Shown piece by piece: positions 2,714 to 52,736 of a stretch of 64,000 nt of DNA. Below the pieces are notes generated by a model. That model was not told where the DNA came from. It saw only the letters and a list, made by a program, of their open reading frames with translations, and made no database searches. The DNA comes from an uncultured Atopobiaceae bacterium (GTDB taxonomy: Bacteria > Actinomycetota > Coriobacteriia > Coriobacteriales > Atopobiaceae), in contig CALUHH010000003.1 in NCBI GenBank assembly GCA_944320385.1, positions 14,638 to 78,637 on the forward strand, read 5' to 3'. The position numbers were made by a program, and so were the translations under genes. Position 1 is the first letter of the stretch; the number at the start of each line of letters is the position of its first letter.

Positions 2714-2777
2714 GAGAATGCCATATGGGACGGTTTTGCCCCTCACGAGGCCTAGAACTGTCCCATATGGCATTCTC
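2714..2777. repeat. Long hairpin (REP-like family E, copy 1)
   Basis: GAGAATGCCATATGGGAC (2714-2731) is the perfect reverse complement of GTCCCATATGGCATTCTC (2760-2777); left arm matches the hairpin at 28297 at 20 of 24 positions. Confidence 0.75.
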
Positions 2778-2894
2778 AGAAGAGGAAGGGCATCGATGGG
2801 AGAGACCCCTCTTTTTTCTGCGATTTCTCTACTTTACATAAGATATATTATCACGGTTTTAAATCGAGAAGGACGTCTAGCTGGCCTCCGCCGG

Positions 2895-3165
2895 CTTAAG
2901 AAATCGCTCTCATCCGGGAATCGAGCCCCTTGTTGCTTAGAAATCCGCCCTCATCCGGGAGGCGCGCTCCCGAGCGCTTAAGGAATCGCGCCCATCCGAC
3001 GCTGCGGCGCGCTTGTGCTTAGAAAATCGTGCCCGTCCAAGGCTCGCCCTTCCACGATCTTCGGGCGGGCGCGATTCCTTAAGCGCTTGGGGCCCCGTGC
3101 ACCGGACGAGCGCGATTTCTTAAGCGCCGAAACCCGGATTCTCCGGACGGGCGCGATTCCTTAAG
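2895..3165. repeat. Head-to-head 41-bp-period repeat array (family A, copy 1; 4 forward + 3 reverse units)
   Basis: Unit consensus CTTAAGRAATCGYSCCCRTCCGG. Forward units start at 2895, 2936, 2977, 3018; CTTAAG ends of reverse units at 3078, 3119, 3160. Lies between convergent ClC and trxB genes. Confidence 0.92.
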
Positions 3166-3178
3166 CGGTGATGCCCTC

Positions 3179-4129
3179 TCAGCCCTCCACCGGGCGCCCG
3201 AGGTATGCGGCGGCACTCGTGGCCGCCACGGCGCCGTCTGCAGCGGCCGTCACGATCTGGCGCAACGGCTTGGCGCGCGCATCGCCCGCAACAAAGAGCC
3301 CCGGGGTCCGCGTGGCCATGCGCTCGTCGGTCACCACGTATCCCGCATCGTCCACGTCCACGAGCCCGCGCACGAGCTCCGTCTCGGGGTCGCGCCCCAC
3401 GAGGACGAAGACGCCGAACGAGCCCTCTTCATAGGTCTCCACATGCGTGGCCCCCGTCGCGTTGTCGCGCAGCGTCAGCGAGCTCGGAAGGTCGTCGCCG
3501 TCGATTGCGACGATGCTCGTGAGCAGGCGCAGCTCGACCTTCTCGTTATTCTCGAGCTCGCGCACTATGGCCGTCTGGGCCCTCAGATGGTCCTTGCGAA
3601 CGATGACCGTGACCTTGCTGGCCAGGCGCGCCAGGAACAGCGCCTCCTCGGCGGCGGAGTTGCCTCCCCCAACTACGAACACGTGTTTTCCTCTGTAGAA
3701 CATCCCGTCACAGGTGGCGCAGTACGAGACGCCGCGCCCCGCAAAGCGCTCCTCGCCCTCAAAGCCGGCGCGGCGCGGGCGCGCCCCGGCGGCGAGGATG
3801 ACCGCGGCGGCGTCGTAGCTCGCGCTCGAGGCGACCACGCAGAACCGACCCGTCTCGGGGTCATGATCTATCGCAGACACCGGGTCCATGACGATCTGCG
3901 CACCGAGGTCCTCCGCCTGCGCGCGCATCGCGTCAGAGAGCGTGAAGCCGTCGGTGTGCGGCAGCCCTGGGTAGTTGTCGATCTCGCTCGTGAGGATGAC
4001 CTGGCCGCCGAGGGCCTCGCGCTCGAGCGTGACCGCATCGAGCAGCGAGCGCTGGGCGTAGATGGCGGCGGAGAGGCCGGCCGGGCCGCCTCCGACGATG
4101 ACGAGGTCCTTGGGTGTGGCGTCGGGCAT
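3179..4129 (-). CDS. trxB: Thioredoxin-disulfide reductase
   Basis: GGGPAG FAD-binding motif, GVSYCATCDG redox centre, GGGNSA NADPH motif, TPGLFVAGD. Confidence 0.95.
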   Translation of the reverse strand: MPDATPKDLVIVGGGPAGLSAAIYAQRSLLDAVTLEREALGGQVILTSEIDNYPGLPHTDGFTLSDAMRAQAEDLGAQIVMDPVSAIDHDPETGRFCVVASSASYDAAAVILAAGARPRRAGFEGEERFAGRGVSYCATCDGMFYRGKHVFVVGGGNSAAEEALFLARLASKVTVIVRKDHLRAQTAIVRELENNEKVELRLLTSIVAIDGDDLPSSLTLRDNATGATHVETYEEGSFGVFVLVGRDPETELVRGLVDVDDAGYVVTDERMATRTPGLFVAGDARAKPLRQIVTAAADGAVAATSAAAYLGRPVEG

Positions 4130-4249
4130 GTCTCTCCCCTCTCGTAAGGTTCCTGGTAAAGGGATACCCCGCTCTCCCCCATCCTATTCAAAATGAGAGG
4201 CGGCGACCAACATTTTGGCCGCCGCCGCGAGAGGTCCGCGATGGACGTG

Positions 4250-5521
4250 CTAGGCCTCGGAGGCCTCCTTGGGTCTTGGGAGCACGAGGTTCATCAGAAT
4301 GCCGACCAGCGTGGAGGTGGCCATGCCGGGCAGCGTGTAGTCGCCGATGGGAATCGAGATGCCCGAGGTCTCCATGCCCACGCCGAGGATGATGACGACG
4401 GAGGCGATCATGAGGTTGCGGTTGACGTCAAAGTCAACGCGGTTGGAGACGAGCATGCGCAGGCCGTTGGAGGCGATGAGACCAAAGAGCAGGAGGCTCA
4501 CGCCGCCCATGACCGGGCTCGGGATGGACTGGATGAGCGCGGCGAGCTTGGGGCAGAAGCCACCGACGACCAGCGCGAAGCCGGCGGCGTACCAGAAGAT
4601 CTGCGTCGAGTAGACGTGCGTGACGCTCATGACGCCGATGTTCTCTGCGTAGGTGGTCGTCGGGGGGCCGCCGAGGAAGCCCGAGATCATCGTGGAGATG
4701 CCGTCGCCGGCGAGGGAGCGAGGGAGCATCTCGCGATAGTCCTTGCCCACGATCTCCCCGACGGCGAGCAGGTGGCCGATGTGCTCGATGACCACGACGA
4801 CGGCCACGGGTGCCACCAGCGCGATTGCCCCGAGGTCGAAGCGCGGCATAGAGACGTGGGGCAGGCCGATCCAGGACGCCTCGGCCACGGGCGCAAAGTC
4901 CACGAGGTCAAGTGCGAGCGAGAGCAGATAGCCCACGATTATGGCGAGAAGGACCGGGACGGTCCCGACGATGCCGCTCATGCCGGAGAAGATGACCGCG
5001 GCGGCGAGGGTGACGGCAGCGACGATGGCCCCCGTGCCGAAGAAGACGCTCGAGCCGTCAGCAGCGTCGGTCATGAAGGCCATGTCGGCAGCCGTGGCGG
5101 CCAGTCCCACGCCAATGACGACCATGACGGAGGCCACCAGGACCGGCGGAAGAAGGCGGTCGAGCCAGCCGGTCCCCACGAGCCGGATGACGCCGGCGAC
5201 GGCGAGGAAGACGAGGCCGGCCACGATGACGCCGGACATGGCGGCGTCGAGCCCCTTGGTCGCGCCCACCGCGAGGATGGGACTGATGAAGGCAAACGAG
5301 CTGCCCAGGTAGCTGGGAATCTTGTTGCCGGTGACGAGCAGGTAGCAGATGGTGCCGATGCCCGAGCACATGATGGCGACGTTGGGGTCGAGCCCGGTGA
5401 GAACCGGGACGAGCACCGTAGAGCCAAACATCGACATCATGTGCTGAATGCCCAGAGGGATGGCGCGACCGACCGAAACGCGGTCGTCGACCCCGATGAT
5501 CTCACGCTCATGCGAGCTCAC
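4250..5521 (-). CDS. Uracil-xanthine permease (NCS2/NAT, UraA/PyrP-like)
   Basis: GIQHMMSMFGSTVLVP, PSYLGSSFAF, PTTTYAENIGV and NAT-type FCPK...SIPSPVMGG motifs; GTG start with AAGGAG RBS. Confidence 0.9.
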   Translation of the reverse strand: MSSHEREIIGVDDRVSVGRAIPLGIQHMMSMFGSTVLVPVLTGLDPNVAIMCSGIGTICYLLVTGNKIPSYLGSSFAFISPILAVGATKGLDAAMSGVIVAGLVFLAVAGVIRLVGTGWLDRLLPPVLVASVMVVIGVGLAATAADMAFMTDAADGSSVFFGTGAIVAAVTLAAAVIFSGMSGIVGTVPVLLAIIVGYLLSLALDLVDFAPVAEASWIGLPHVSMPRFDLGAIALVAPVAVVVVIEHIGHLLAVGEIVGKDYREMLPRSLAGDGISTMISGFLGGPPTTTYAENIGVMSVTHVYSTQIFWYAAGFALVVGGFCPKLAALIQSIPSPVMGGVSLLLFGLIASNGLRMLVSNRVDFDVNRNLMIASVVIILGVGMETSGISIPIGDYTLPGMATSTLVGILMNLVLPRPKEASEA

Positions 5522-5550
5522 GGGTCACGCTCCTTTCTTGATTGGCCGAT

Positions 5551-5580
5551 AAGAAAAAGGCCCGGGCGCGCCCGGGCCTT
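5551..5580 (-). terminator. Intrinsic terminator between the two permease genes
   Basis: AAGGCCCGGGC-GC-GCCCGGGCCTT stem followed on the minus strand by TTTTTCTT. Confidence 0.75.
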
Positions 5581-5586
5581 GGCAGT

Positions 5587-6906
5587 CTAGGCTGCGAGGA
5601 AGTACACGAGGAAGGCTAGGGCCGCGACCCACATGAGCGGCTTGACCTTTGCGACCTGACCCGTGACGACGGCGACCAGGACGTAGGCGATGAAGCCCAG
5701 GCCGATGCCGGCGGAGATGGAGTAGGTCATGCAGATGCCCGCGACGATCATGAAGGCGGGGAAGCCGTCGAGAACGTCGGACCAATCGATGCCGGAGACC
5801 TCGCTCATCATGAGGTAGCCCACGTACACGAGGGCGCCACAGGTGGCCGCAGAGTTGACGCACGCGATGAGCGGCGAGAGGAACGCGGCGAGCAGGAACA
5901 GGACGCCGGTGGTAATGGAGGTGAGGCCGGTGCGGCCGCCGTCAGCGGCGCCGGAGGCGGACTCGACGAAGGTGGTGACGGAGGAGGCACCCACGAGGCC
6001 GCCGACCGCGGCGGCGGCGGAGTCGACGATCAGGATCGGCTTGATGTCCTTGACGTTGCCGTCCTCGGTGAGGAACTCGCCCTGCTTGGCGACGGCCATG
6101 GCGGTGCCCATGGTGTCGAAGAAGTCTGACATCATGAGCGAGAAGGCGAGGATGAGCAGGGTCGGGTTGGTGACGACCTTGGCGATGCCCATGACGCCGT
6201 CCGCGTCGGTCTGGAAGGGCGCACCGAAGGTGGCAAAGTCGAGCGTGGAGACGATGCCGGCGGGAGCGGTGGTCACGCCGAGGGGGATGCCGCAGATGAC
6301 GGCGATGACGATGCCGAGAAGGATCGAGCCCTTGACCTTGAAGGCCTCGAGAATGACGGTGGCGACGATGGAGATGATGCCCACGATGAACATCGGCTCG
6401 GTGATGGTGCCGAGGGCGAGCAGGGTGCCCTTGTCGTTGACGATGATGCCGGCGTTGGAGAGGCCGATCATCGCGATGAAGAGGCCGAGACCGACCGAGA
6501 TGGCGTGGCGCAGGGACACGGGGATGGCGTCCATGATCGCCTCGCGCAGGCCGCAGAGGACGAGCAGGAGGATGGCGATGCCCTCGACGAAGATGATGGC
6601 CATCGCCGCGTGCCAGTCACCGCCGCACACGCCGGTGGCAGCGGCGGCGATCATCGAGTTGACGCCGAGACCCGAGGCGCAGGCAAGCGGCCTGTTGGCA
6701 AAGACGCCCATGCAGACGGTCATGATGGCCGCGCCGAGGCAGGTGCCGGTGACGATGGCGCTCGTGGGAACGTCGGGCATCGCGGCGCTGAGGATCGAGG
6801 GGTTGACGATGATGATGTACGCCATCGCAAGGAAGGTCGTCAGACCGGCTCGCAGCTCCTGGCCGGGATTCGATCCCCTCTCCTGCATCTTGAAGAACTT
6901 CTCCAT
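5587..6906 (-). CDS. NCS2 family (AzgA/PbuG-like) purine permease
   Basis: ELRAGLTTFLAMAYIIIVNPSIL, GLGLFIAMIGL, FFDTMGT and ESASGAADGGRTGLT motifs; start placed at MEKFFK. Confidence 0.92.
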   Translation of the reverse strand: MEKFFKMQERGSNPGQELRAGLTTFLAMAYIIIVNPSILSAAMPDVPTSAIVTGTCLGAAIMTVCMGVFANRPLACASGLGVNSMIAAAATGVCGGDWHAAMAIIFVEGIAILLLVLCGLREAIMDAIPVSLRHAISVGLGLFIAMIGLSNAGIIVNDKGTLLALGTITEPMFIVGIISIVATVILEAFKVKGSILLGIVIAVICGIPLGVTTAPAGIVSTLDFATFGAPFQTDADGVMGIAKVVTNPTLLILAFSLMMSDFFDTMGTAMAVAKQGEFLTEDGNVKDIKPILIVDSAAAAVGGLVGASSVTTFVESASGAADGGRTGLTSITTGVLFLLAAFLSPLIACVNSAATCGALVYVGYLMMSEVSGIDWSDVLDGFPAFMIVAGICMTYSISAGIGLGFIAYVLVAVVTGQVAKVKPLMWVAALAFLVYFLAA

Positions 6907-6978
6907 TAACGAACATCCCTTTCTTTTGCCACGTACAGAACGAGCTATGTCAGTCACGCCCGTGGGCGGAAAGACCAT

Positions 6979-7425
6979 CTAGACGCCGCTTGAGCCAAAG
7001 CCGCCGGCGCCGCGGTCGGTCTCGTCGAGCTCGTCGACCTCGACAAGGCTCACGACGGGGACCCTCTGGATGACGAGCTGGGCGATGCGCTCCCCGCGCT
7101 CGATGCGAATGGGCCGCTCGGCATCGAGGTTCACGGCGCAGACCTTGAGCTCGCCGCGATAGTGGGAGTCGATGAGGCCGGGTGTGTTGGCCATGGAGAG
7201 GCCCTCACGCAGCGCAAGGCCGCTCCGAGGCTGGACGAAGCCGGCGTACCCCTCCGGGATGGCGATGGCGAGGCCGGTGGAAACGAGCCTGCGCTCATGG
7301 GGGGCCAGGGTCACGTCCTCGTTGGAGCGAAGGTCGAGGCCGGCGTCTCCCTCGTAGGCGTAGGTGGGGAGCTCGACGGTGGGGTCGAGCCGCTTGATGG
7401 GAAGGTCGATGCGATCGTCAGTCAT
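6979..7425 (-). CDS. dut: dUTP diphosphatase
   Basis: [29 protein letters not shown] and [10 protein letters not shown] motifs. Confidence 0.97.
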
Positions 7426-7867
7426 TAAGGCTCCTCAGCTCCTCGCTGAACTCGTCAACGTCCTTGAAGTCGCGGTAGACGGAGGCAAAGCGCACGTAGG
7501 CAACCTTGTCGATGGAGACGAGCCTCTTGAGCACCATGCCGCCGAGGTCGACCGACGAGACCTCGGTGATGCCGCCGTCGCGAAGCTCCGACTCGATGTC
7601 GTCGATGAGCGACGAGAGCGTGGAGAGGGGGACGTCGCGCTTGACCGTTGCGGTCACGAGGCCCCTCATGAGCTTCTGTCGGTCGAACGTCTCCTTGCGG
7701 CCGTCGCGCTTGACCACGACGAGCGGCAGCTCCTCGCACCGCTCGTATGTCGTGAACCGGAAACCGCACGAGGCGCACTCGCGGCGGCGCCTGATGGCGT
7801 CATTGCCTTCAGAGGGACGCGAGTCAACGACTTTGGACTCCTCGCACCCGCATTTGGGACAGCGCAT
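7418..7867 (-). CDS. nrdR: Transcriptional repressor NrdR
   Basis: MRCPKC...[18 protein letters not shown] zinc ribbon plus ATP cone ending [12 protein letters not shown]; start placed at ATG 7867. Confidence 0.97.
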
Positions 7868-7965
7868 CTGACCTCCTCGTGAAAATGCACCATGAGAAGG
7901 TATCACAAAACGTTCAAAACTCGAAACTGAGCGCCTGTCCCGAAACGTGACGGAAAGGGACGGCG

Positions 7966-8421
7966 TCAGTCGAGCGCGGCGGAGGGCACCACGAGCGTCT
8001 GCCCCGCGGTGATGAGACCTCCTTCGATGCCGTTGCGATCCTGGATCCAGGACACAAGCTCAGACGTGGGAATATCCGACCCGCAGCTCTCCGCGATGCT
8101 CCAGAGCGAGTCCCCCTGGGAGACGACGACGGAGGCGGTGGGGAGCGCGTCAAGGGCCTCGCGGGCATGCGCGGCGCGCAGCGGGTCGACGACGAGGCAC
8201 GCCAGCAGGATGGCGAGGATGACGACGGCGCCACCGAGCACAAAGCGCATCCCCTGGACGGCATCCGAAGGGTCTGGGACCACGCGCGCATCCGCGCGGA
8301 CGCAGGGCTGCGCCACACGGTGCCCGCGGCCCCCTTCGATGAGCACGAGCCCGCGCGGATTCACGCTCAGGGCGGAGGTGCCGTCTATTGCCGGAAGTGT
8401 CGCAGAGGTGGTGTAGCTCAT
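7966..8421 (-). CDS. Single-TM LysM protein, probable SOS cell-division inhibitor (YneA/ChiZ-like)
   Basis: Hydrophobic segment FVLGGAVVILAILLACLVV, C-terminal LysM VVVSQGDSLWSIA...NGIEGGLITAGQTLVVP; divergent from lexA with LexA boxes in its promoter. Confidence 0.8.
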   Translation of the reverse strand: MSYTTSATLPAIDGTSALSVNPRGLVLIEGGRGHRVAQPCVRADARVVPDPSDAVQGMRFVLGGAVVILAILLACLVVDPLRAAHAREALDALPTASVVVSQGDSLWSIAESCGSDIPTSELVSWIQDRNGIEGGLITAGQTLVVPSAALD

Positions 8422-8493
8422 CGTTATCCCCTTTCGTCTCTTTGCTGAGACGGTTATAGCGTGCCGACCGGACAGAAATTCAACGCGCAATGA

Positions 8494-8583
8494 GAACATC
8501 TGTACCCTATTATGGTGGTACAATTGTTCGTGTCAAGAAGAAACGAACAATTGTTTGCAATTTGGCGCCCTATGGGCTATGAT
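8494..8583. promoter_or_regulatory. Divergent lysM/lexA promoters with three LexA (SOS) boxes
   Basis: lexA promoter TTGCAA(8555-8560)-17 nt-TATGAT(8578-8583); lysM promoter TTGACA(8536-8531)-16 nt-CATAAT(8514-8509). Boxes CGAACAATTGTTTG (8544-8557), CGAACAATTGTAC (minus strand, 8530-8518) and GAACATCTGTAC (8494-8505). Confidence 0.8.
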
Positions 8584-8608
8584 GCGGACACGGACGAAGG
8601 AGGCTCCC

Positions 8609-9256: not shown

Positions 9257-9258
9257 GC

Positions 9259-10029: not shown

Positions 10030-10057
10030 CCGCAGGCCAGACGTTCCAGCCGCCTGC

Positions 10058-10251
10058 TACACAAATCGCCTTTTGTGTATGCGGCGTACACAAATGAGGA
10101 TTTGTGTAGCAGGCAGAAGCGCGCTTGAGCAAAGACTAAGCCCTAAGGTTAATGTCTTTATCGACAAGAACATGCGGCTCCACTGCCCTCCTCGGCCGCG
10201 TACACAAATCGCCTTTTGTGTATGTGGCGTACACAAAAGGCGATTTGTGTG
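10058..10251. repeat. 194-bp MITE/REP-like element (family B, copy 1)
   Basis: 22-bp palindromes TACACAAA-N6-TTTGTGTR at 10058, 10087, 10201 and 10230 (29-bp period within each pair) flank a 92-bp core nearly identical to that at 47725-47816. Confidence 0.9.
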
Positions 10252-10264
10252 GCGCGTGATGGGT

Positions 10265-11552
<1,288 letters not shown>

Positions 11553-11566
<14 letters not shown>

Positions 11567-15358: not shown

Positions 15359-15369
15359 GCGCGCTCCCG

Positions 15370-27964: not shown

Positions 27965-28295
27965 TCCCGAATGGTTCCTTTCGTGGGTGTCGGTCAGGGC
28001 TATCTAAGCCGGCCACAGGGCCGTGCCAATTCGCATACCGGTTAATTGTAAACGAGAAGAACGAGCCGCTGGCATGTTCCACGATGGCTTCACGGGACGC
28101 GCGGAGGGCGCGGGGCGGGGCGGGGGCGGCCCGCACTTCTCGGCGCGTCTCATCAAGTGCGGGCCGGAGCGCACTGGATCCGAGCACTCGGCGCCAGACG
28201 TCGAGAAGGACCGCGCACTCGACGCGCCGCGGGCCCAAATCCGCCCGCACTCGATGCGCGCACTCACGAGTGCGGGCGCCCAGCGCGGGCGGACG

Positions 28296-28360
28296 CGAGC
28301 ATGCCATGGGGGACGGTTTCGCCGGGCCGGGGCCCGGTTCCGCCCCACATGGCATGCTCG
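28296..28360. repeat. Long hairpin (REP-like family E, copy 2)
   Basis: CGAGCATGCCATG (28296-28308) pairs with CATGGCATGCTCG (28348-28360); left arm GAGCATGCCATGGGGGACGGTTTC resembles 2714 GAGAATGCCATATGGGACGGTTTT. Confidence 0.7.
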
Positions 28361-28370
28361 GCGCGGGGCG

Positions 28371-31300
28371 TCAGCCGCGGGCGGCGAGGTTCGCCACGAG
28401 GGCGGCCGCCTCGGCGCGGGCGAGGGCGCGGCAGGGCTCCAGAAGGCCGTCGCGGCCGTGGAGGACGCCCTCGGCCACGGCCCAGGACACGGCGCCGATG
28501 GCCCACTCGGAGACCTCGGGGGCGTCCGAGAAGGGCGAGAGGTCGGCGGCCGCCCCGGGCCCGCCGGCGGCGCTGCAGAGGACCGCCGCGGCCTGCTCGC
28601 GGGTGAGCGGGTCGTCGGGGCCGAAGGCCGACCCGTCGCCGCAGCCGTGGAAGATCCCCTCCTGGAGGGCCCGGGCCACGGCCCCCGCGTACCAGGCGGA
28701 GGGGTCGCAGTCGGACGGGAGCCCCGAGAGCTCGACCTCGGGCCCGCCCGCGGCGTTGTGGAGCGCGACCGCCCACCGGGAGGCGTGGCCCAGCCTGAGC
28801 CTCGCCACGCCATCGTCGACGACGCCCGAGCACTCGTAGCGCAGCGTTCCCGCGCCTCGTCGTAGCGATACAGGTTGGCGAACAGGCCGTCGCTCTTCTC
28901 GCCGAGAGGGGCGACCAAGGTCAGCTCGAAGCCGAACTCGCCGTCGTGCGCGAGCGTGGCCTGCACGACGCCGGCCTCCGCCGTCACGAGGTCCACCACC
29001 TCGACGGGGATGCCGTCGGTGCCCACCTCAACGCCCATGTCGACGTCCGAGAGGGGCGTCCCCTCCGGCACGTCGCCGCCGCGGATCTCCCACGAGACGC
29101 CCTCGCCCATCTCCAGCACGAGCGTCACGTCGCGGCCTGCGAGCGCCTGGAAGACCTCCTTGTCGAGCTTGGTGTCGCCGGAGCTCAGGGAGATCTTCAC
29201 GGTGTCGCCGTCCTTGGCGCCCCTGATCTTGTCGATGGCCTGCTGGCTGGGGGTCTTGGCGGGCGGAACGTAGGGCGGGGCATAGCTGGTCGTCACGACG
29301 CAGGCGGCCTGCGCGGCGCTGTGGTTGCCGTCACCGGCGTAGGACGCGGTGAAGGTGTAGTCAGCCGTCTGGTTGGGCAGCTCGGCCACCCAGGTGCCGT
29401 CGCTGCCCTCCGTCACGTCGACGTCGCCGTCGCAGGTCACCGTGGCGCTTCCACCGTCGGGCACGCCGGCGAGGGTCAGCGTCACGCGGCCGCCCCCGGA
29501 GAGGGCGGCGGGGTCGGCGGTCAGGGCCAGGGCGGGCGTCACCTTGCTGATCGAGGCCGTCTGCACAGATGCCGTCTCGCTCATGAGGGAGTAGTACGCC
29601 GCGTGCTCGCCTGTCAGGGTTATGCCGGTGGCGGTAATCGTCCTGTTGTTCCCGGCGTCCGCGCTGTCGTAGGCAATCGAGGCGCTGGACGCGGCCACCT
29701 CGTCGCCTTCCAGGACGCCGGTCAGCGCAATGACCAGCCCGTCGGGCGCCGCGGTGGTGCCGTCATAGGTCTTTGAGGTCGTGCCGTCCAGCGCGGCGTC
29801 TACGTACGCCTTTTCCAGCGTCACCGTGACCCCGCCGGTGCTGGGGTTCAGACTGCCGCTTCCGCCGTAGCTGACGGTAAGGGCATTATTGCCGATGGCC
29901 AGTCCCTTGCCCCGAGTGTCGTAGGTCAGCGTGTAGGAGCCGTCAGCATTGGCTGTGGTGGCGCTGGCAAGTACGGCGTCGCCTGTCTTCAGCTCCACGA
30001 CGTCCTGTGCCGTGGTCAGGGCGTTGATGCCGTAGGCAGCGGTCTGTTCGGGCGTGACGGTGATTTTCAGAGTTTCGCCGTAGGTCAGGATGCCCTCAGC
30101 CGGCACGACCGTCAGGGTGCTGTCGGCGCGCTCGGTGGTGACTGGCGTGCCAGCGCTGGCCGGCGACGGCTCGTAGAGGCTGGTCCCGGCATAGCGGGCG
30201 TGGAACATGTAGGTCGTGCCGGGGGTAAGACCATCGAAGGTGGTCCCGGACTGCCAGCGCTCCTCGGGCACGGCGGTCTCACCGCCCGTGGCGTAGCCGT
30301 ACTGAACGGCGCCCTGGCCGACGGTGGTGACGGCGTCCAGGGTGACGCTGTAGGCCGTGGGCGGCGTCGTGGTGCTCGCGGTGGGAGCGCCCGGGGCGGA
30401 CTGCTGCGCCTTGCTGACCGTCAGCGTGGTAGAGCCGGAGCTCTCTATGAGGTCGCTGCCGTCGGCGGGCGTGTAGACGGCGGTGACGGCGTAGTCGCCG
30501 GGGGTCCAGCCAAGCTCGTCGATCGTGTGGGCGGCGATGCCGTTGCCTACGCTCGTCCCGGTGCCGTTCAGAGCGTCGCCGCCCTGATAGAACGTGACGC
30601 TACCGCCGTTGACGGGAGTGCCGTCCTCTTTGACGGTTGCCGTCAGGGTGACGGACCCGCCGTAGGTGGCGGGACTGGGAGACGCGCTCACTTCGACGGC
30701 TGCCATGAAGTCGTTGTCTGCGACGGAAATATCCCCGTTGTTGACGAGGGTACCCTTGCCCGCCAGGGAACCCTGCCCGGCGATCGTGCCGTTGTTGGTG
30801 AGGGTGGTTCCACTGGGGACGGTTATGCTGGCCCCCTCGGGGATGGTCACCGTGGCCCCGTCCGGGATGGTGATGTTGCAGGGCAGGGTCAGGTTACCCC
30901 AAACCGATAGGTATTCTCCTGGCCGGACACGGGGCGGATGCCTTGGCCGTTATCGCCGTCAGTCGTTCCTAGACCGCCACCGATGTCTAATCCGTCAGCG
31001 GTTGTACCCTGGCCATCTCCTCCAGTGACCGTTACATTTCCCGTGGCAAGGATGATAACCGTCCCACAGGCTTCTCCGGCTTCCCCTGAAGCCGGTTTAC
31101 CGCCTATTCCGCTACCACCGCATGTGCCATATGAACTGCCGCCCGTAACAGATAGTCCACCACTGCCCTGGATAACAAGTGAGGAAGACGCTGGTACGTG
31201 GATACCGGGTGCCCCTAGATCAAGACCTCCATTTCCGCCGGTCAAAGCATTGCTTGTATCATTTGCCAAATTCAGCACAAGGCGAGCGTTTTCTCCCACA

Positions 31301-31912: not shown

Positions 31913-32034
31913 TGAGGGTGTGTACACCCCACCGGCAAGCCCGTTCTTCTCGGCAGCCCTTTTACCTGCGAAAACGTCATTCATCAGAGTTCGGATGGTG
32001 TACATACCCTCAAGAGATGGCGTACATACCCTCC
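31913..32034. repeat. GTGTACAC-type inverted-repeat element (family C, copy 1)
   Basis: TGAGGGTGTGTACACC (31913-31928) faces GGTGTACATACCCTCA (31997-32012) and GGCGTACATACCCTCC (32019-32034); internal CCGTTCTTCTCG and TTTACCTGCGAAAAC. Confidence 0.8.
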
Positions 32035-32385: not shown

Positions 32386-32542
32386 TACACAAAAGGCGAT
32401 TTGTGCGCGCGGCTGAGGAGAGCCGTGGAGCCGCTTGTTCTTGTCGATAAAGAAATTATGCTAAAGATTTAGCCTCAGACCACCAGGGCTCGTCAAGAGC
32501 GAGAAGTGCGGGCCGCCCGGCACACAAATCCTCATTTGTGTG
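32386..32542. repeat. Family B element, divergent inverted copy (copy 3)
   Basis: TACACAAAAGGCGATTTGTG (from 32386) and CACACAAATCCTCATTTGTGTG (32521-32542) flank the reverse complement of core TTTATCGACAAGAACAAGCGGCTCCACGG. Confidence 0.82.
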
Positions 32543-35414: not shown

Positions 35415-35557
35415 TGAGGGTGTGTACACCGCCCCTGTAGGGTATGTACACCAGGCCTCACGGCACTTCTCGCAAAAGCGCAGGTCAGAGCGCTGGCGAG
35501 AAGAACGGGCGGGTCGGATGACTGTACATACCCTGAGGGGCGGTGTACACACCCTCA
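35415..35557. repeat. 143-bp MITE-like element with ~36-bp terminal inverted repeats (family C, copy 2)
   Basis: TGAGGGTGTGTACACCGCCCCT (35415-35436) is a perfect 22-bp IR with 35536-35557, extended by a second AGGGTATGTACA unit on each side; overlaps the stop codon of the C26 gene. Confidence 0.85.
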
Positions 35558-40198: not shown

Positions 40199-40268
40199 GT
40201 GGGACACTCACCCCGGAGGTTTCTGTCCCACAAAGGTGGGACAGAAACCTCCGGGGTGAGTGTCCCAC
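40199..40268. repeat. Perfect 33-bp-arm palindrome (70 bp)
   Basis: GTGGGACACTCACCCCGGAGGTTTCTGTCCCAC-AAAG-GTGGGACAGAAACCTCCGGGGTGAGTGTCCCAC, followed by a partial extra GGGGTGAGTGCCC. Confidence 0.92.
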
Positions 40269-42879: not shown

Positions 42880-42926
42880 ACTCCAGTGACTTGTCCCAAA
42901 CGTTTCCCGAGTGCCTTATACCCCGG

Positions 42927-42950
42927 AAAAGGCGGGGGCACGCCCCCGCC
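42927..42950 (-). terminator. Hairpin terminator after the DnaJ-like gene
   Basis: GGCGGGGGC-GT-GCCCCCGCC followed by TTTT on the minus strand. Confidence 0.6.
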
Positions 42951-42987
42951 GTTCACAAAGCTATCACTTTTCTGAAGCTACCTGAAG

Positions 42988-44106: not shown

Positions 44107-44237
44107 GTGGCATGTCTCCCTGCTGGCGATACGTCACAGATGGGTGAAGTATACCCGGCATTCAGGGGCTTTAGGGAAACGCCACGGTATCCGCGCAGTT
44201 CGCGGCGGGGCGGCGGGGCGGCGGCGAGGCGCGGCGC

Positions 44238-44708: not shown

Positions 44709-44803
44709 GGCTGCCTCCCTCTCGTGTTTCCGCTGCTAGCATGGCGCATTTGCGCCACGTGCGCAAGGGGCGAGAAGGACGGGCGGGCTGCGGGCGCTTC
44801 TCG

Positions 44804-45115
44804 CCTGGGGTTTGCGCCCCGTCCGGCGCCGGGGCGGCGCCGCGCTTAGGGAATGCGGCCCGTCCGGCGAGAAGGGCATGTTGTGCTTAAAGAATCGCCC
44901 CCGTCTGGCGCTGGGGCGGCGCCGCGCTTAAAGAATCGCTCCCGTCCGGCGAGAAGGGCATGCCGTGCTTAAGAAATCGCCCCCATCCGGACAAATGGCG
45001 GGACGCCCCTCCGGACGGAGACGATTTCTTAAGCACGAACCGGCCCGCCGCCCGAATGGGCCGCGATCCTTAAGCGCGAATCCGCCCGCCGCCCGGACGG
45101 GCCGCGATCTCTAAG
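44804..45115. repeat. Head-to-head 41-bp-period repeat array (family A, copy 2)
   Basis: Forward units at 44845, 44886, 44927, 44968 (plus a degenerate one at 44804); reverse-unit CTTAAG/TCTAAG at 45028, 45069, 45110. Forward spacers alternate CGCYGGGGCGGCGCCGCG and CGAGAAGGGCATGYYGTG. Confidence 0.92.
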
Positions 45116-45155
45116 CGCGCCGCCGACCGCGGCCCAGCCGCTTGGGCAGTCTGTC

Positions 45156-45176
45156 AATTGGGGACTGTCCCCAATT
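45156..45176. repeat. GGGGACTGTCCCC-type palindrome at the 3' end of the oxidoreductase gene
   Basis: AATTGGGGAC-T-GTCCCCAATT, 10-bp perfect arms. Confidence 0.7.
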
Positions 45177-47185
45177 TACAGCTGGTTGGCGGCGGCGTAG
45201 GCGGTGCGGATGGCGCTCGCGATGTCGGCGGTGCGCTCGCCGGAGCAGTCGCCCACCAGCGTCACCGGCACGTCGAGGCCGCTCGCGTCGAAGGGCACGG
45301 CGCGCGAGCCCACCGCCATGACGACCCAGTCGCACGGGATGGTCACGCCCTCGTCGCCGCAGACCGCCTCGACGCCGGCGTCGGTGATCGCGGTCACGCG
45401 CGTGTTGACGTGCTGCTCCACGCCCTTCTCGGCGAACTCCGCCATGATCGTGGGCAGGATGGTCCCGGACTCCCCCGTCGCGATCTGCTCGAGCATCTCC
45501 ACGATGGCCACCTGGCAGCCGCGCGCGAGCAGGTACTCGGCGGTCTCGGTGCCCACGAGGCCTCCGCCGATGACGGCCACGCGGCCCTCGGGCGCGGCCG
45601 CGCCGGCGAGCACGTCCCACGCGGAGACCACGTTGGCACGGTCGGCGCCCGGCACGGGCAGGCACACGTTCTCGGCGCCCACCGCGACGACGACGGCGTC
45701 GAAGCCGGCGAGGTCGGCGGCCGCGACCTCGCGGCCCAGGCGCACGTCGACGCCCAGCGCGGGCAGCTCGCGCTCGTAGTACTCCACGGCGCGCATGATC
45801 TCGGACTTGCGCGGCGGCGCGGCGGCGAGCTCGATCTGGCCGCCGAGGCGCTCGGCACGCTCGAAGAGGGTCACGGCGTAGCCACGCTTGGCGGCCACGC
45901 GCGCGGCCTCGCAGCCGGCGATGCCGCCGCCGACCACGGCCACGCGCTTCTCGCCCTCGCCCGGGCGGATGAAGATCGTGGCCTCGTCGCCGTTCTCGGC
46001 GTTGAGCACGCAGGAGATGCAGCGGCGGCCCTGGATGGCGTCGACGCAACCCTTGTTGCAGTTGAGGCACAGGCGCACCGGCTCGCCGGAGGCCACCTTG
46101 AGGGCGATGTCGGGGTCGGCGAGCAGCGAGCGGCCGTAGCCGATGACGTCTGCCTGGCCGTCCTCGAGGATCTTCTCGCCCGCCTCGGGGGTGACGACGC
46201 GGCCGACCGTGGCCACGGGGATGCCCACGAGGCCCTTCACGCGCTCGGCCACCGGGAGCGTCCAGTTGTAGGGCATCGTGCCCATGGGCGGGATGGTGTC
46301 GCCCATGTTGCCGGTGTGGTTGGCCTGAGCCACCTGGATCATGTCCACGCCCGCCTTCTCCAGCAGCACGGCGAGCTCGCAGGCCTCGTCGGGCTCCAGG
46401 CCGCCCTTGCCGCGCTTGGAGCCGTCCGGGTTGGTCATGATGACGGGGAGCTTGTACTCCACCATGAGGCCGGGCGCGGCCTCCTTGATCGCGGCGACGA
46501 CCTCGAGCGCGTAGCGGACGCGGTTCTCGAAGGGGCCGCCGTAGTCGTCGGTGCGGTGGTTGAGCGCGGTGGAGCACAGCGACCCCACCAGGCGGTCGCC
46601 GTGGACCTCGATGGCGTCGACGCCGGCCTTCTCGGCACGGGCGGCGCAGGCGGCGATGGCGTCCCTGATCTGGGCGAGCTGCTCGACGGTGGCCTCGGAG
46701 ACAAAGTGCTGCATGTCGTGGTGGAGCTTGGCGTAGGCCTGGTTGGCGATCTCCTTGGACTCGGCCATCTTGGCCTGGAAGGTCTCCATGTCGCCGGCGG
46801 CCTGCGCCTTCTGCCCCTCCATCGCCGCCATGCGCGAGGTCATGATGAGCCTGCCCACGCCGGGGACGTCGTACTCGGGGTGGAAGAGCTGCAGGGCGAG
46901 CTTGGCGCCGTGGGCGTGGACGGCGTCGGCGAGCGCGGCGAAGCTCGGGATCTGGGAGTCGTCGCAGAGCTTGGGCGTGGGGCTCGCGGTGTTCACGGGC
47001 GCGACGTCGCCGATGACGATGTAGGAGACCCCGCCCTTGGCGAGGCGCTCGTAGAAGGCGAGGCTGCGCGGGCCGATGGAACCGTCGCGCTCCTCGTAGC
47101 CGGTGGTGAGCGGCGGGAACATGATGCGGTTCTTGAGCGTGAGGTTGCCGACCTTGATCGGCTCGAGCAGCTTGGACGTTGCCAT
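45176..47185 (-). CDS. bilR: OYE-family NADH:flavin oxidoreductase, long form; probable bilirubin reductase
   Basis: TIM-barrel start LKNRIMFPPLTTGYEE, QLFHPEYD, HGDRL at the OYE active-site position (46592-46603), 4Fe-4S motif CLNCNKGC-X11-C, FAD-binding GGGIAG and second Rossmann GGGLVGTETA. The bilR symbol rests on motif recognition, not a search. Confidence 0.72.
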   Translation of the reverse strand: MATSKLLEPIKVGNLTLKNRIMFPPLTTGYEERDGSIGPRSLAFYERLAKGGVSYIVIGDVAPVNTASPTPKLCDDSQIPSFAALADAVHAHGAKLALQLFHPEYDVPGVGRLIMTSRMAAMEGQKAQAAGDMETFQAKMAESKEIANQAYAKLHHDMQHFVSEATVEQLAQIRDAIAACAARAEKAGVDAIEVHGDRLVGSLCSTALNHRTDDYGGPFENRVRYALEVVAAIKEAAPGLMVEYKLPVIMTNPDGSKRGKGGLEPDEACELAVLLEKAGVDMIQVAQANHTGNMGDTIPPMGTMPYNWTLPVAERVKGLVGIPVATVGRVVTPEAGEKILEDGQADVIGYGRSLLADPDIALKVASGEPVRLCLNCNKGCVDAIQGRRCISCVLNAENGDEATIFIRPGEGEKRVAVVGGGIAGCEAARVAAKRGYAVTLFERAERLGGQIELAAAPPRKSEIMRAVEYYERELPALGVDVRLGREVAAADLAGFDAVVVAVGAENVCLPVPGADRANVVSAWDVLAGAAAPEGRVAVIGGGLVGTETAEYLLARGCQVAIVEMLEQIATGESGTILPTIMAEFAEKGVEQHVNTRVTAITDAGVEAVCGDEGVTIPCDWVVMAVGSRAVPFDASGLDVPVTLVGDCSGERTADIASAIRTAYAAANQL

Positions 47186-47384
47186 GAGGGTTCCTCTCCA
47201 TCGGCGATGCGGTCCCCGCCAGCGTAGGGCATGCGGGGGCGCGCACGCAGGAGAGGTCGGAGGGACGCCCGTTCTTCTCGCCGCGCGAGCGAGAAGAACG
47301 CTCTGGTTGAGCCTGAGACTCTGAGGCGACAGACCCTCTAGCAAGCCTCAAGCTCGCAGGTAAGACGGCTTGGAAGCGCCCCTT

Positions 47385-47484
47385 GGAGGGTGTGTACACT
47401 GCCCGGATCCGGACGGTTTGCGTTTCCGCCGGTAGACGAGGTGTCGAGAAGGACGGGCGGGTCGCATGAGTGTACACACCCCCC
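47385..47484. repeat. Family C element (copy 3)
   Basis: GGAGGGTGTGTACAC (47385-47399) faces GTGTACACACCCCCC (47470-47484); internal GAGAAGGACGGGCGGGTCG. Confidence 0.78.
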
Positions 47485-47673
47485 GATGGTTCTTCTCGAC
47501 TGCGGCATGAGGGCCTCCTTCTTGGTCGTCCCGCGCGGACGGATGTCCGCCGTCATTCAGAGAAACTCTATCCAAGCGCATGTCGGCCCACAACCCCCTG
47601 CAACCGAACGGTCGCTCTGGGGAACCGAATAGCACCCGATCGAGGGCTCGGACGAGAAGTGCGCACGGCCCGC

Positions 47674-47867
47674 GACACAAATCGCCTTTTGTGTAAGTGG
47701 TGTACACAAATGAGGATTTGTGTAGCCAGCAGAAGCGGGCTTGAGCAGAGACTAAGCCCTAAGGTTAATGTCTTTATCGACAAGAACATGCGGCTCCACG
47801 GCCCTCCTCGGCCGCGCACACAAATCGCCTTTTGTGTGCGCCGACTACACAAATCGGCTTTTGTGTG
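47674..47867. repeat. 194-bp MITE/REP-like element (family B, copy 2)
   Basis: Palindromes at 47674, 47703, 47817 and 47846; 92-bp core differs from 10109-10200 at about 5 positions; same total length as copy 1. Confidence 0.9.
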
Positions 47868-47879
47868 CGGCGGCCGTGG

Positions 47880-49058
47880 CTAGTCGTCTGCCGCGAGGTC
47901 CCACATGAGGCCGTAGAGCTCGTTGCCGAGGAGCCACCCCCGCTCCGTCGGCACGAGGCGGCCGTCCGCGTCCCAGGCTGCGAGTCCGCGCGAGAGCGCC
48001 CCGTCCACCGCGGCGTCCACGTTCTTCTCGCCCGCCGCCGCCCGCGCGCGCCCGAGCAGCTCCGGGCCCACGCCGCGCGTCATGCGCATGCCGAGCATCA
48101 GGTCCTCCGCCACGGCCTCGCGCACGGTCAGGCGCTCCACGTCGAAGCGCGTGCCCGCGTCGTCGACCTGCACATAGCGCACGCGCGCCGTGCCCGCGCC
48201 GGACGGCTCGCCGCCGAGAAGCGCCGCGAGCCCGTCCCACTCCCCCGCCGCGAGCATGCCCGCCGCCGAGCGGCCCAGTCCGAGGTAGCTCTCGCCCGTC
48301 CAGTACGCGATGTTGTGGGCGCACGCGTGGCCGGGCCGCGCGTAGCTCGCGACCTCGTAGGGACGATAGCCCGCCGCCCCGAGCGCGCGGCGCGCCTCCT
48401 CCATGCACCAGGCCTGGAAGTCGGCGTCCGGCTCGAGCGCGGGCACGTCCGCGGCGCGGCGCGCGAGCGGCGTGCCCTCCTCGAGCGTGAGCGGGTAGAC
48501 CGAGACGTGGTCCGGCACCGCGGCCGCGATGCCGCCCAGCGTGCGCTGCCAGCTCCCCCTCGTCTGGCCGGGCAGGCCGCACATGAGGTCGCAGGAGACG
48601 TCGAGCCCCGCGGCGCGCCCGCGGGCAACGGCCGCGAGCGCCTGCTCCGCGCTGTGGATGCGCCCGATGGCGGCGAGCTCCGCCGGCTCGAGCGTCTGCA
48701 CCCCGAGCGAGACGCGCGTGGCGCCGGCCTCCGCCAGCGCTGCCGCCATGGCGTCGTCGAAGGACTCCGGGTTGGCCTCGCACGTGAGCTCCAAGGGGTC
48801 GCACCACGACCGCACGCGGCGCACGAGACCCGCCAGGCGCGGCCCCAGCACCGTGGGCGTGCCGCCGCCCACGTAGGCCGTGCGCACGCCCGCGAGCGCG
48901 CCGGCCGCGCCAAAGGCGTCGATCCGGGCGAGCAGGCCATCGAGGTAGCGCGCCGCCGCGTCCTCGAGCGCCGCGCCGCACAGGGCACGCGAGTCAAAGT
49001 CGCAGTAGGCGCACTTTGCGTGGCAGAACGGTATGTGCAGGTAGAGCGCGGAGATCAT
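47880..49058 (-). CDS. hemW: Radical SAM heme chaperone HemW (HemN-like)
   Basis: LYLHIPFCHAKCAYCDF, YVGGGTPT, TCEANPES, RVSLGVQ, HVSVYPLTLEEGT, YEVASYA and HNIAYW. Confidence 0.92.
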   Translation of the reverse strand: MISALYLHIPFCHAKCAYCDFDSRALCGAALEDAAARYLDGLLARIDAFGAAGALAGVRTAYVGGGTPTVLGPRLAGLVRRVRSWCDPLELTCEANPESFDDAMAAALAEAGATRVSLGVQTLEPAELAAIGRIHSAEQALAAVARGRAAGLDVSCDLMCGLPGQTRGSWQRTLGGIAAAVPDHVSVYPLTLEEGTPLARRAADVPALEPDADFQAWCMEEARRALGAAGYRPYEVASYARPGHACAHNIAYWTGESYLGLGRSAAGMLAAGEWDGLAALLGGEPSGAGTARVRYVQVDDAGTRFDVERLTVREAVAEDLMLGMRMTRGVGPELLGRARAAAGEKNVDAAVDGALSRGLAAWDADGRLVPTERGWLLGNELYGLMWDLAADD

Positions 49059-49110
49059 CGCACCTCCGTAGGAAGTCAGGCTACATCAGAGCATAGCGCG
49101 CCCGGCGTCC

Positions 49111-49283
49111 GGAGGTGTGCGCACTTCTCCGGGGTGTGCGCACTCCTTTGGGGTGTGTACACGCGCCCGACCCGCCCGTCCTTCTCGTCAAGGCGTTTAC
49201 CTGCGGAAACGCTGTTTGTCTCAAATCGGTCGGTGTACACAACCGGCGGGACCGTACACAACCGAAGGGAGTGTGCACACCCG
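49111..49283. repeat. Family C element, expanded (3 + 3 units; copy 4)
   Basis: GGTGTGCGCAC, GGTGTGCGCAC and GGTGTGTACAC at ~20-bp spacing from 49111, then CCCGCCCGTCCTTCTCG and TTTACCTGCGGAAAC, then GGTGTACACAACC, CGTACACAACC and GTGTGCACACCC. Confidence 0.78.
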
Positions 49284-49318
49284 CGCGGCCCCGCCCAGGC
49301 GAGAAGGACGCGCGCCCC

Positions 49319-50307
49319 TCACTCCCCCAGCACCGCGCGGACCTCGGACGCAACCGCGAGGAACTCCTCGGCCGCCACGCAGCTCATGGCCGCGTTTCTC
49401 CAGCGCGCGGCGTCCGGCATGCCCTTGAAGTACCAGCCCGCGAGGCTGCGCGCCCGCTTGAGGTGGGCGCCGGTGGCCTCGAGCAGGCGCACGTGGCACT
49501 CGAAGGCCGCGATCTTCTCGCCCGTCGTGGGGACGCGGCCCGAGAAGACCCACGGGTTGCCGTAGGTCCCGCGCGCGACCATCACGGCAGAGGCGCCCGT
49601 CTCGGCGAGCGCCCGGGTCGCCGCCTCGTGAGAGAACATGTCGCCGGAGGCGATCACGGGCACGCCCACCGCATCGGCCACGCGGTCGATGACGCCCCAG
49701 TCGGCCTCGCCGTGGTACATCTGCGTGGCAAAGCGCCCGTGAACGGCCACCGCAGCGGCGCCGGCGGCCTCCATCGCGCGCGCGAACTCCGGCGCGACCT
49801 CCTGCCCCGCGTAGCGACCGCGGCGGATCTTCACCGTCACGGGGACGCCCGGCGCGCCCGCGCGGCACGCTGCCACGATCCGGGCGGCGAGCGCGGGGTC
49901 CTCCAGCAGCGCCGAGCCCTCGCCCTTCTTCGTGACCTTGGGCACGGGGCAGGCCATGTTTATGTCGAGAAGCGCGAGGCGCTCCCCCAGGCGCTCCGCC
50001 ACGCGCTCGGCGGACTCGCGGAAGAGCTCGGGCTTGGAGCCAAAGAGCTGCACGGCGATCTTAGGCTCGGCCGGGTCGGGGTCCACGAGCTCCCAGCTCT
50101 TCTCGCCGTAGTGGAGGCCGGCGCAGGAGACCATCTCGGAATAGGCCAGTGCCGCGCCGCCCGCGCGCGCCATGAGGCGGTACGCCGCGTCGGAGACGCC
50201 GGCCATCGGCGCCATGAGCAGCTTGCCCGCAAGCTCGCCGTCCCACGCGGGGCAGGTCGGCGCCAGGCCGGCCGGCGGCGCAAAGGCCGCCAGCACCTCG
50301 GCGGCCG

Positions 50308-50311
<4 letters not shown>
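49319..50311 (-). CDS. dusB: tRNA-dihydrouridine synthase (DusB-like)
   Basis: [44 protein letters not shown] and VMVARG motifs; GTG start overlaps the lepA stop. Confidence 0.92.
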
Positions 50312-52119
<1,808 letters not shown>

Positions 52120-52228
52120 GTGGTGAATGATAGCGAACTCGCGGTCGATATGCTATATTCGTCGGGTTGACCTCGCCGTGTCTCAGCACAGAGGCCTCAC
52201 ATGTATTGGGAACCGAAAGGAACTGCAC

Positions 52229-52492
52229 GTGGCTAACATCAAGTCTCAGAAGAAGCGCATCATCACCGCTGAGAAGGCGCGTCAGCGCAACCGCGCGGTC
52301 CGCTCCGAGCTCAAGACCGCCGTCAAGAAGGTCCGCCTCGCCGTCGAGGCCAAGGACGTCGACGCCGCCCAGGACGCCGCCAACAAGGCCAACCGCCTGC
52401 TCGACAAGGCCGCTTCCAAGGGCATCATCCACAAGAACCAGGCCGCTCAGCGCAAGAGCGGCGTCCAGAAGCTCGTGAACACCATCAAGTAG
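52229..52492 (+). CDS. rpsT: 30S ribosomal protein S20
   Basis: ANIKSQKKRI...RNRAVRSELKTAVK...DKAASKGIIHKNQAAQRKS; GTG start with AAAGGAA RBS. Confidence 0.98.
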   Translation: MANIKSQKKRIITAEKARQRNRAVRSELKTAVKKVRLAVEAKDVDAAQDAANKANRLLDKAASKGIIHKNQAAQRKSGVQKLVNTIK

Positions 52493-52516
52493 CTTCTCCC
52501 TCAGAGCGCACGTGAG

Positions 52517-52548
52517 CGGACCCGGGGTGCTGCCCGGGTCCGTTTTTT
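52517..52548 (+). terminator. Intrinsic terminator after rpsT
   Basis: CGGACCCGGG-GTGCTG-CCCGGGTCCG followed by TTTTTT. Confidence 0.88.
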
Positions 52549-52609
52549 GTGGCGGGGTTCCGGGCGCGCGTTCTTCTCGGCCCGACGCTCTTCTCGGCCC
52601 GCAACAAAC

Positions 52610-52736
52610 CCCTGGTGCCTGATTTCCGTCAAATGTGTGAATCGGTGCCTGATTTCCGTCATATGCGTACGACGGACACGCATATGGCCGGATTCCGGCA
52701 CCAAAACACGCATATGGCGGAAATCAGGCACCAGGG
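52610..52736. repeat. 127-bp head-to-head element, 30-bp period, 2 + 2 units (family D)
   Basis: 19-bp perfect terminal IR CCCTGGTGCCTGATTTCCG / CGGAAATCAGGCACCAGGG. Forward GGTGCCTGATTTCCGTC at 52614 and 52644; reverse units start CATATGG at 52681 and 52711. Confidence 0.88.

Follow-up and report, generated by a model that had tools for sequence, protein, structure and literature searches.

Do the repeated units that stand head to head in the intergenic gaps of an Atopobiaceae genome belong to one system, and what are they? The question is raised by a stretch of 64,000 nt (contig C3:14638-78637, below called the window) from the uncultured Atopobiaceae genome G000 (2.24 Mb, 58 contigs, ~68% G+C), in which four families of elements, A to D, are built of short units arrayed in opposed rows around a central spacer. 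A preliminary description of the window had taken this common layout as the mark of one system of undescribed, lineage-specific, non-autonomous elements. The elements are indeed undescribed, lineage-specific and non-autonomous, and no description of repeat elements in Atopobiaceae or other Coriobacteriia was found in the open-access literature searched. The single system did not hold. Opposed rows are the ordinary layout of inverted-repeat elements with iterated sites in their arms, and since this layout is general to the ends of Tn7 and Mu, to inverted repeat/direct repeat (IR/DR) elements and to REPINs (inverted pairs of repetitive extragenic palindromic, REP, sequences), it is no sign of one system. 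With a probability of about 0.5, A to D are instead independent families resembling MITEs (miniature inverted-repeat transposable elements) and REPINs, the arms of which would be iterated binding sites for trans-acting enzymes.

The host belongs to the Coriobacteriia, family Atopobiaceae, and to a genus close to Thermophilibacter. It was placed by its hemW product, which was 88% identical to those of two uncultured Atopobiaceae genomes and 80% identical to that of Thermophilibacter mediterraneus. The two sister genomes, one of which (G011) is a closed 2.77-Mb chromosome, are ~8-10% diverged from G000; gene order is the same, and the DNA identity of the genes is ~90%.

Anatomy, dispersal and gene context of the families

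All loci of A to D listed in the preliminary description were present at the positions given there, as determined by sequence inspection and Tandem Repeats Finder. Family A was counted genome-wide by a loose unit pattern with reversed sequence as control, and 343 units at 75 loci were detected, compared to 0 in the reversed sequence. In each unit, 23-24 nt are conserved (GCTTAAGaAATCGC.CCCrTCCGG), and the next 17-18 nt are free to vary. Neighbours of the same orientation were exactly 41 bp apart in 192 of 225 cases, and most of the other distances were 42 or 82 bp. Wherever both orientations occurred at a locus, forward units came first and reverse units followed (+..+ -..-; 43/43 loci), in arrays ranging from 1+1 to 7+7. 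An exact 41-bp period combined with spacers of free sequence and as many as 7+7 units in opposed rows makes family A unusual for a bacterial repeat. Adjacent spacers were often identical, and the second array of the window is a repeated 82-bp dimer, which points to growth of A arrays by local tandem duplication. The spacers of opposite arms were not complementary. A arrays break the assembly: in the 58-contig draft, a contig end is no more than 700 bp away at 38 of the 75 loci. A CRISPR array was rejected on the array layout (cas genes were not searched): at 17-18 nt, the spacers fall short of the ~30 nt or more of unique CRISPR spacers, neighbours among them frequently duplicate each other, and each array has two opposed halves. 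Both arrays of the window are listed here by position in the window; none of the features listed in this text is assigned a strand, and E denotes the 10-mer CGAGAAGRAC.

2894..3167, no strand: A array 1, 4 forward + 3 reverse units, 41-bp period (Tandem Repeats Finder)
44804..45119, no strand: A array 2, 4 (+1 degenerate) forward + 3 reverse units, 82-bp higher-order duplication (Tandem Repeats Finder), E-like words in the spacers

Family C was found at 34 loci, 19 of which are '++--' with a spacing of 22/83-84/22 and form a rigid 142-bp element of 2+2 units. The 2+2 layout reported earlier for C was thus recovered, while its supposed variability was not: the element is fixed, the 1+2 and 1+1 forms are decayed copies, and the 3+3 form is a separate subfamily of 19-bp period. 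The 13-mer of the unit was near-invariant across the 19 paralogous copies, the centres of which were only ~60-70% alike. Family D, at 33 loci, has 30-bp units in 1-4 copies per arm. All mixed-orientation loci of C and D likewise read +..+ -..-. Family B was found by BLAST at 8 loci and consists of paired palindromes around an AT-rich core; its units are palindromic and those of A, C and D are not.

31913..32034, no strand: C copy, 1+2, one left unit lost; core holds GTTCTTCTCG and TTTACCTGCG
35416..35556, no strand: canonical C, 2+2 units of (T)GAGGGTATGTACAC, spacing 22/84/21; near-perfect 148-nt hairpin fold
47386..47483, no strand: short C copy, 1+1, with E words alongside
49108..49283, no strand: C-variant subfamily, 3+3 units GGTGTGYRCAC, 19-bp period; C core (E word + TTTACCTGCG)
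52610..52736, no strand: D element (D1), 2+2 units GGTGCCKGATTTCCG-N5-ATGCGTG, 30-bp period; inverted E words at 52570 and 52750 on either side
10058..10251, no strand: B copy 1, located between convergent genes; ACACAAA-N6-TTTGTGT palindromes in pairs around an AT-rich core of ~92 bp
47674..47867, no strand: B copy 2, downstream of hemW
32386..32542, no strand: B copy 3, inverted and remodelled

When each element was compared with the whole genome by BLAST, all four families proved to be dispersed, and at least four further families (X1-X4) were recognised; in all, the genome contains at least five families besides A to D. About 12% of the intergenic DNA matched at least three other intergenic regions, and a repeat was present in 395 of 1,071 regions. 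In the whole genome, 91% of the CTTAAG sites (211/233) are intergenic because most of them lie inside A units; TGTACA is concentrated in C units and CATATG in D and X1 units.

Gene context was scored with gene calls from a crude codon-usage caller of our own (77% coding), and the counts are approximate. Convergent, tandem and divergent gaps stood at 9:8:3 for family A, at 7:16:3 for C and at 9:11:1 for D; for all gaps, the ratio is 174:691:177. The elements prefer gene 3' ends and avoid divergent gaps. Stacking of several families at one site is evident in the window and is not a rule of the genome, in which 11 intergenic regions held at least two families, compared to ~35 expected. Contrary to the preliminary description, the families are not wholly unrelated in sequence, since A spacers and the C core both carry E, which is the only truly shared feature among them. 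A consensus scan revealed no promoters inside the elements, and no tRNA was found in the window.

Turnover between species and constraint on the units

The distribution of the families was determined in a genus sample of 39 genomes, including G000, G011, G012 and G038. By pattern scan, A units numbered 343 in G000, 181 in G011, 19 in G038 and 9 in G012, and the other genomes (~34) were at control level; a single A array as BLAST query under-counted the family in G011, and the pattern scan gives the corrected figure. C was common only in G000, G011 and G012, and D was common in G000, G011 and G038. B was present in G000, with one match in G038. Thus, the four families are confined to few genomes of the genus.

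Comparison of orthologous sites, one of the checks proposed in the preliminary description, showed that the elements are not fixed everywhere, gaps being filled, empty, doubled or otherwise occupied between sister species. The 388-bp gap that holds A array 2 is a 38-bp hairpin in both sister genomes. The gap of D1 lacks the element in T. mediterraneus, carries it doubled in G011 and holds another element in a third genome. On contig C16, four C copies of G000 have orthologues in G011, as a fifth probably does, and G011 carries extra copies. One gap holds a gene for a REP-associated tyrosine transposase (RAYT) with its REPs in G000 and a C element in G011. In the sister genomes, the hemW gap contains a B-like element with different palindromes (GGACCCAAAT...ATTTGGGTCC) and a homologous core. 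At one of the five orthologous C pairs (G000 C16:15789-15928 versus G011), the centre stood in the opposite orientation while the arms were unchanged; at ~70% identity, inversion in the manner of an inverton and replacement are equally possible.

Some accessory genes are bracketed by the repeats. In T. mediterraneus, ~99 bp replace window positions 44796-47867, which comprise a bilR-like oxidoreductase gene together with an A array, a P palindrome, an E hairpin and C and B elements; the bilR-like gene is thus an accessory gene flanked by repeats. The B-like elements downstream of hemW in the sister genomes (L009, L010) have a homologous core (ATCGACAAGAAC) and carry palindromes GGACCCAAATCCGGATTTGGGTCC in place of ACACAAA-N6-TTTGTGT, and in L009 a whole gene lies between two B-like elements. 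In G000, three open reading frames (ORFs) lie between two C copies in direct orientation (C16:19645-21746) that are nearly identical and have the same left flank. By eye, these include a hicA/hicB-like toxin-antitoxin pair and a DUF559-like gene; the largest ORF has no Pfam match.

The five orthologous C copies were used to compare the parts of the element between the two species. The units were identical at 265 of 280 positions (95%) and the 8-nt spacers at 55 of 80 (69%; Fisher's test, p = 5e-9), while identity was 75% in the centre and 64% in the flanks (448/700). The periods of A, D and C (41, 30 and 19-22 bp) are near whole helical turns. As judged from this comparison, the units of A to D appear to be retained as sequence and spacing, in the manner of double-stranded protein-binding sites, and not as hairpins, since unit sequence and spacing are conserved while pairing is not.

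The evidence on pairing bears on the alternative that the elements act as RNA, namely as long hairpins in 3' untranslated regions that serve termination or protect mRNA 3' ends, like the REPs and bacterial interspersed mosaic elements (BIMEs) of E. coli. Such a role would fit the position just past stop codons, the enrichment between convergent genes and the very stable folds of whole elements (-86 to -99 kcal/mol, z-scores of -9.5 to -12.7). It would also fit the weak within-copy complementarity that was detected for C spacers (p = 0.035), A arms (p = 0.006) and D arms (p = 0.03), the A-arm signal being driven by a few locally duplicated arrays. However, both strands fold equally, and genes are accompanied by elements of either orientation. 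In the 19 full C copies, the whole arms did not covary, the match being 29.0/36 within copies and 28.7 between copies (p = 0.23). In-stem spacers drift while units are conserved, and the spacers of the two A arms do not pair. No U-tract accompanies the elements, and no Rfam family was matched in the window at gathering level; at E <= 1, only spurious plant-miRNA hairpins appeared in two sub-regions. The mRNA 3'-end structures that had been offered earlier as one explanation are therefore disfavoured, and an RNA-level role is considered very improbable.

The same conservation bears on a second alternative, according to which the arrays are retained by the host as protein-binding sites for nucleoid organisation, recombination or cassette exchange, analogous to the Neisseria intergenic mosaic elements (NIMEs). 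The units diverge by 5%, compared to ~8-10% on average for neighbouring genes, and more slowly than the adjoining spacers. The A period is fixed at 41 bp though the spacer sequence is free, accessory genes are bracketed by repeats (the bilR-like gene, the hicAB/DUF559-like cassette and the gene between B-like elements), and A and C carry the genus-wide 10-mer E. On the other hand, the families are limited to few species and close relatives manage without them, sister species differ freely in what a given gap contains, a candidate for the binding protein was not found, and several unrelated unit sequences would demand several proteins. Retention by the host is thus a possible explanation, with roughly one chance in four.

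Candidate enzymes and known systems

The reading of A to D as independent mobile families implies the following scheme. The families, found in a single small clade of an Atopobiaceae genus near Thermophilibacter, would have arisen there and spread. An arm is a row of 1-7 copies of a conserved 13-24-bp unit at a fixed spacing of 41, 30, 29 or 19-22 bp, and the units may act as double-stranded DNA sites for a sequence-specific protein. This protein would most likely be a transposase or recombinase that acts in trans, binds the ends and pairs the opposed rows. Arrays would grow and shrink by local tandem duplication.

A RAYT-type HUH nuclease had been suggested as the enzyme acting in trans. Four RAYT-like Y1_Tnp genes were indeed found in G000 (C5:54741-55505, C1:209598-210371, C53:2413-3318 and C16:8410-9258). 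Their products carry a C-terminal helix-turn-helix-like tail, and their best NCBIfam match was REP_Tyr_transpos, with 56-65 bits, far above the IS200 model and below the family cut-off of 80. Three of the four genes are flanked on both sides by GGGACAG-core palindromes, which are dispersed at ~150 or more sites, whereas at the fourth (R3, on C53) there is no more than an incomplete GGGACAG word, on one side. The flanking palindromes in G000 belong to the P family, the X2 family and a third type. In G000, G011 and G012 together, flanks were recognisable for 7 of 11 RAYT genes, all as GGGACAG-core palindromes, and A-D units stood beside none of the 11. Thus, a genuine REP-RAYT system is present in this member of the Coriobacteriia, and because its RAYT genes are flanked by GGGACAG-core palindromes and not by A-D units, its REPs do not include A, C and D. 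The enzyme suggested earlier exists, but what flanks its genes are the P and X2 palindromes. The REP-like and further repeats of the window are as follows.

2714..2777, no strand: X1 palindrome, GGGAC(A/G)G core; REP-like, ~19 loci
40199..40268, no strand: X2 REP, perfect 33-nt arms; the X2 family flanks the RAYT-like gene on contig C16
45149..45183, no strand: P-type REP, GGGGACTGTCCCC core; the P family flanks the RAYT-like gene on C5, ~150 sites genome-wide
60152..60217, no strand: X3 hairpin repeat (GAGGTGCGGC ... GCCGCACCTC), ~9 loci
28114..28372, no strand: X4 composite repeat ending in an X1-like palindrome, ~21 loci

That A to D are nevertheless REPIN-type elements moved by these RAYT-like HUH tyrosine transposases is improbable. 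In its favour, the genome encodes four such proteins, RAYT and REPIN systems likewise leave no target duplication and are maintained by vertical descent (PMC3116915), the units of B, like the RAYT-flanking REPs, are true palindromes in the CAAA...TTTG style, and RAYT cassettes alternate with C elements in the same gaps of G000 and G011. Apart from the flanks, however, single A, C and D units form no hairpins, and the NCBIfam scores stay under the cut-off. The 3' flank of R3 shares TTTACCTGC with the C core, but the alignment showed nothing further, and a link was dismissed. One RAYT protein is 100% identical in G000 and G011, though housekeeping genes are ~90% identical at the DNA level.

No other enzyme could be assigned to the elements. 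As stated in the preliminary description, no transposase was found in the window: six transposase and recombinase Pfam families gave no match in this part of C3. No TnpB was found, forward and reverse rows kilobases apart on one contig were not found, and collections of plasmid, phage and viral contigs gave no matches to the elements. A role of A to D as ends of insertion sequences (ISs) was rejected because none of their units flank rve or Y1 genes, other classes being compared by coordinates only. An IS110-type transposase gene of G000 (C2:174930-176598) ends ~95 bp from an intact 4+4 A array and recalls IS110/IS1111 elements, which target REP-like repeats. It was rejected as a partner of family A, as the array is unsplit and the arrangement was read as adjacency only.

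Several observations weigh against the reading as mobile MITE/REPIN-like families. Besides the RAYT flanks, the scanned flanks of rve and Y1 genes carried no A-D units, and a comparison of DDE_Tnp_1, IS110-type and tyrosine-recombinase genes with A-D loci, by coordinates only, revealed no cognate enzyme. The search for an autonomous partner covered the draft assembly and a few genomes, and a partner could lie in unassembled sequence, given the A loci at contig ends. For the 19 full C copies, target-site duplications (k = 2-9, offsets -2 to +3) were no commoner than matches across copies. A clean empty site with exact borders was not recovered between the sister genomes at their ~8-10% divergence. 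Paralogous copies are mostly 70-80% identical and hence old, and recent jumps were not evident. To our knowledge, 7+7 units per array exceed any known transposon end. Finally, conservation of the units in situ is compatible with a host function no less than with a selfish one.

Comparison with known elements locates A to D between several types. Of the traits of MITEs, they show terminal inverted repeats, small size, absence of coding sequence and many dispersed copies; a target duplication (C, 19 copies) and an autonomous relative with the same ends (rve and Y1 flanks) were not found. The REPIN/REP-RAYT system comprises short, non-coding, dispersed intergenic elements with two inverted units around a spacer (Bertels and Rainey 2011, PMC3116915). 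Like A to D, REPINs are intergenic and without target duplication (as examined in C), have inverted units around a spacer and persist over long times, largely by vertical descent; they would also share with them a dependence on an enzyme acting in trans. In A, C and D, however, the units are not palindromic hairpins, the arms hold 2-7 phased direct copies and no RAYT gene is flanked. The BrickBuilt MITE of Porphyromonas gingivalis has one direct run of 23-nt repeats without spacers, between a leader and a tail (PMC4596501). It resembles A to D in being limited to a species, strictly intergenic and non-coding, in its inverted ends and in a length that varies by tandem subunits. A to D differ by two opposed runs and a free spacer of fixed length after each unit, and neither a target duplication nor a parent IS was found for them.

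Transposons with several transposase sites per end form a further group, which includes Tn7 (3 left, 4 right), Mu (3+3), Tn402/Tn5053 and IS21. The ends of Tn7, Mu, Tn402/Tn5053 and IS21 contain direct repeats of one site at fixed spacing and are inverted relative to each other, as are the arms of A to D, and a deletion derivative of a transposon of the Tn7 or Mu type would resemble n + m units head to head. Unlike these ends, A to D adjoin no such transposase, reach 7+7 units and vary by local duplication, and no 5-bp duplication was found for them. E. coli BIMEs, which are bound by gyrase, integration host factor (IHF) and Pol I, are also mosaic intergenic arrays of a short conserved unit at gene 3' ends with variable copy number. 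Their units alternate in orientation, whereas the forward units of A, C and D all precede the reverse units.

The 10-mer E and its implications

E occurs in 1,517 copies in G000, compared to 43 for the reversed-word control, and its two forms are the top two 10-mers of the genome. Forward (744) and reverse (767) copies were balanced, with no bias on any contig, whatever the gene direction or GC skew. While 43% of the copies are intergenic, 57% lie in genes, in three preferred frames. Copies of both orientations accumulate 0-30 bp past stop codons, and E is ~3-4x denser in A loci (spacers) and C loci (core) than in intergenic DNA overall; no enrichment was seen at the RAYT REPs. All 18 sampled genomes of the genus contained 250-1,640 copies, ~10 other Atopobiaceae genera contained 200-900, and the rest were at control level. 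Orthologous E sites were kept in 19 of 39 cases, compared to ~44% expected, which is about the background rate. In the proteome of G000, the tripeptide EK[DN] occurs 497 times, compared to 62 for [DN]KE. Since 441 of the 497 are encoded by the exact E word, the DNA word shapes protein sequences. Examples of E in the window are given below.

47271..47299, no strand: inverted E pair (GTTCTTCTCG ... CGAGAAGAAC), hairpin downstream of the bilR-like gene
44771-44780, 47271-47299, 52570-52579 and 52750-52759, no strand: E words

A polar signal of the Chi or KOPS type was rejected because of the lack of strand bias on any contig. E was also rejected as a common terminal repeat of the families, as the copies are mostly singletons, 57% of them are genic and no pair orientation dominates. 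In its abundance, strand symmetry and taxon-wide grading, E shows the genomic pattern of a DNA uptake sequence, a role that may be granted modest odds. Genes for DNA uptake lie in the window at 54379-57538, namely comEC (770 aa, Competence and metallo-beta-lactamase domains) and comEA (SLBB and helix-hairpin-helix domains), which adjoin holA, rpsT, lepA and hemW.

A similar combination is said to exist in Neisseria, the repeat landscape of which, as reportedly described by Parkhill et al. in 2000, includes NIME/dRS3 arrays, Correia elements and the DNA uptake sequence DUS. Correia elements show a TA duplication and an IHF site. Like G000, Neisseria has a ~2.2-Mb genome with ~1,500-1,900 copies of a 10-mer on both strands and several mosaic intergenic repeat families at gene ends, which bracket variable genes. 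The IS110-type gene beside an A array in G000 recalls the link between dRS3 and a Piv-like recombinase. Unlike Neisseria, G000 comes from a Gram-positive actinobacterium; its sequences are unrelated to those of Neisseria, and E is likened to DUS by its genomic pattern alone. An unlikely picture would combine units kept by the host as sites for dedicated DNA-binding proteins with E as an uptake or 'self' tag, i.e., a Neisseria-like, competence-linked architecture in a Gram-positive gut actinobacterium. If this were true, the E-carrying arrays at gene ends would be joints for transformation-driven swaps of cassettes such as the bilR-like gene and the toxin-antitoxin-like pair.

Atopobiaceae and other Coriobacteriia are common gut bacteria. 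In G000, the repeats affect the quality of assembly, the typing of strains and probably also gene flow; a third of the assembly breaks fall in A arrays. Repeats stand on both sides of accessory genes, among them one for a candidate bilirubin reductase. That the units have stayed conserved at their sites while species diverged suggests sequence-specific proteins, which may be reached with simple oligonucleotide baits. To the question of how common words resembling uptake sequences are, E contributes a Gram-positive candidate.

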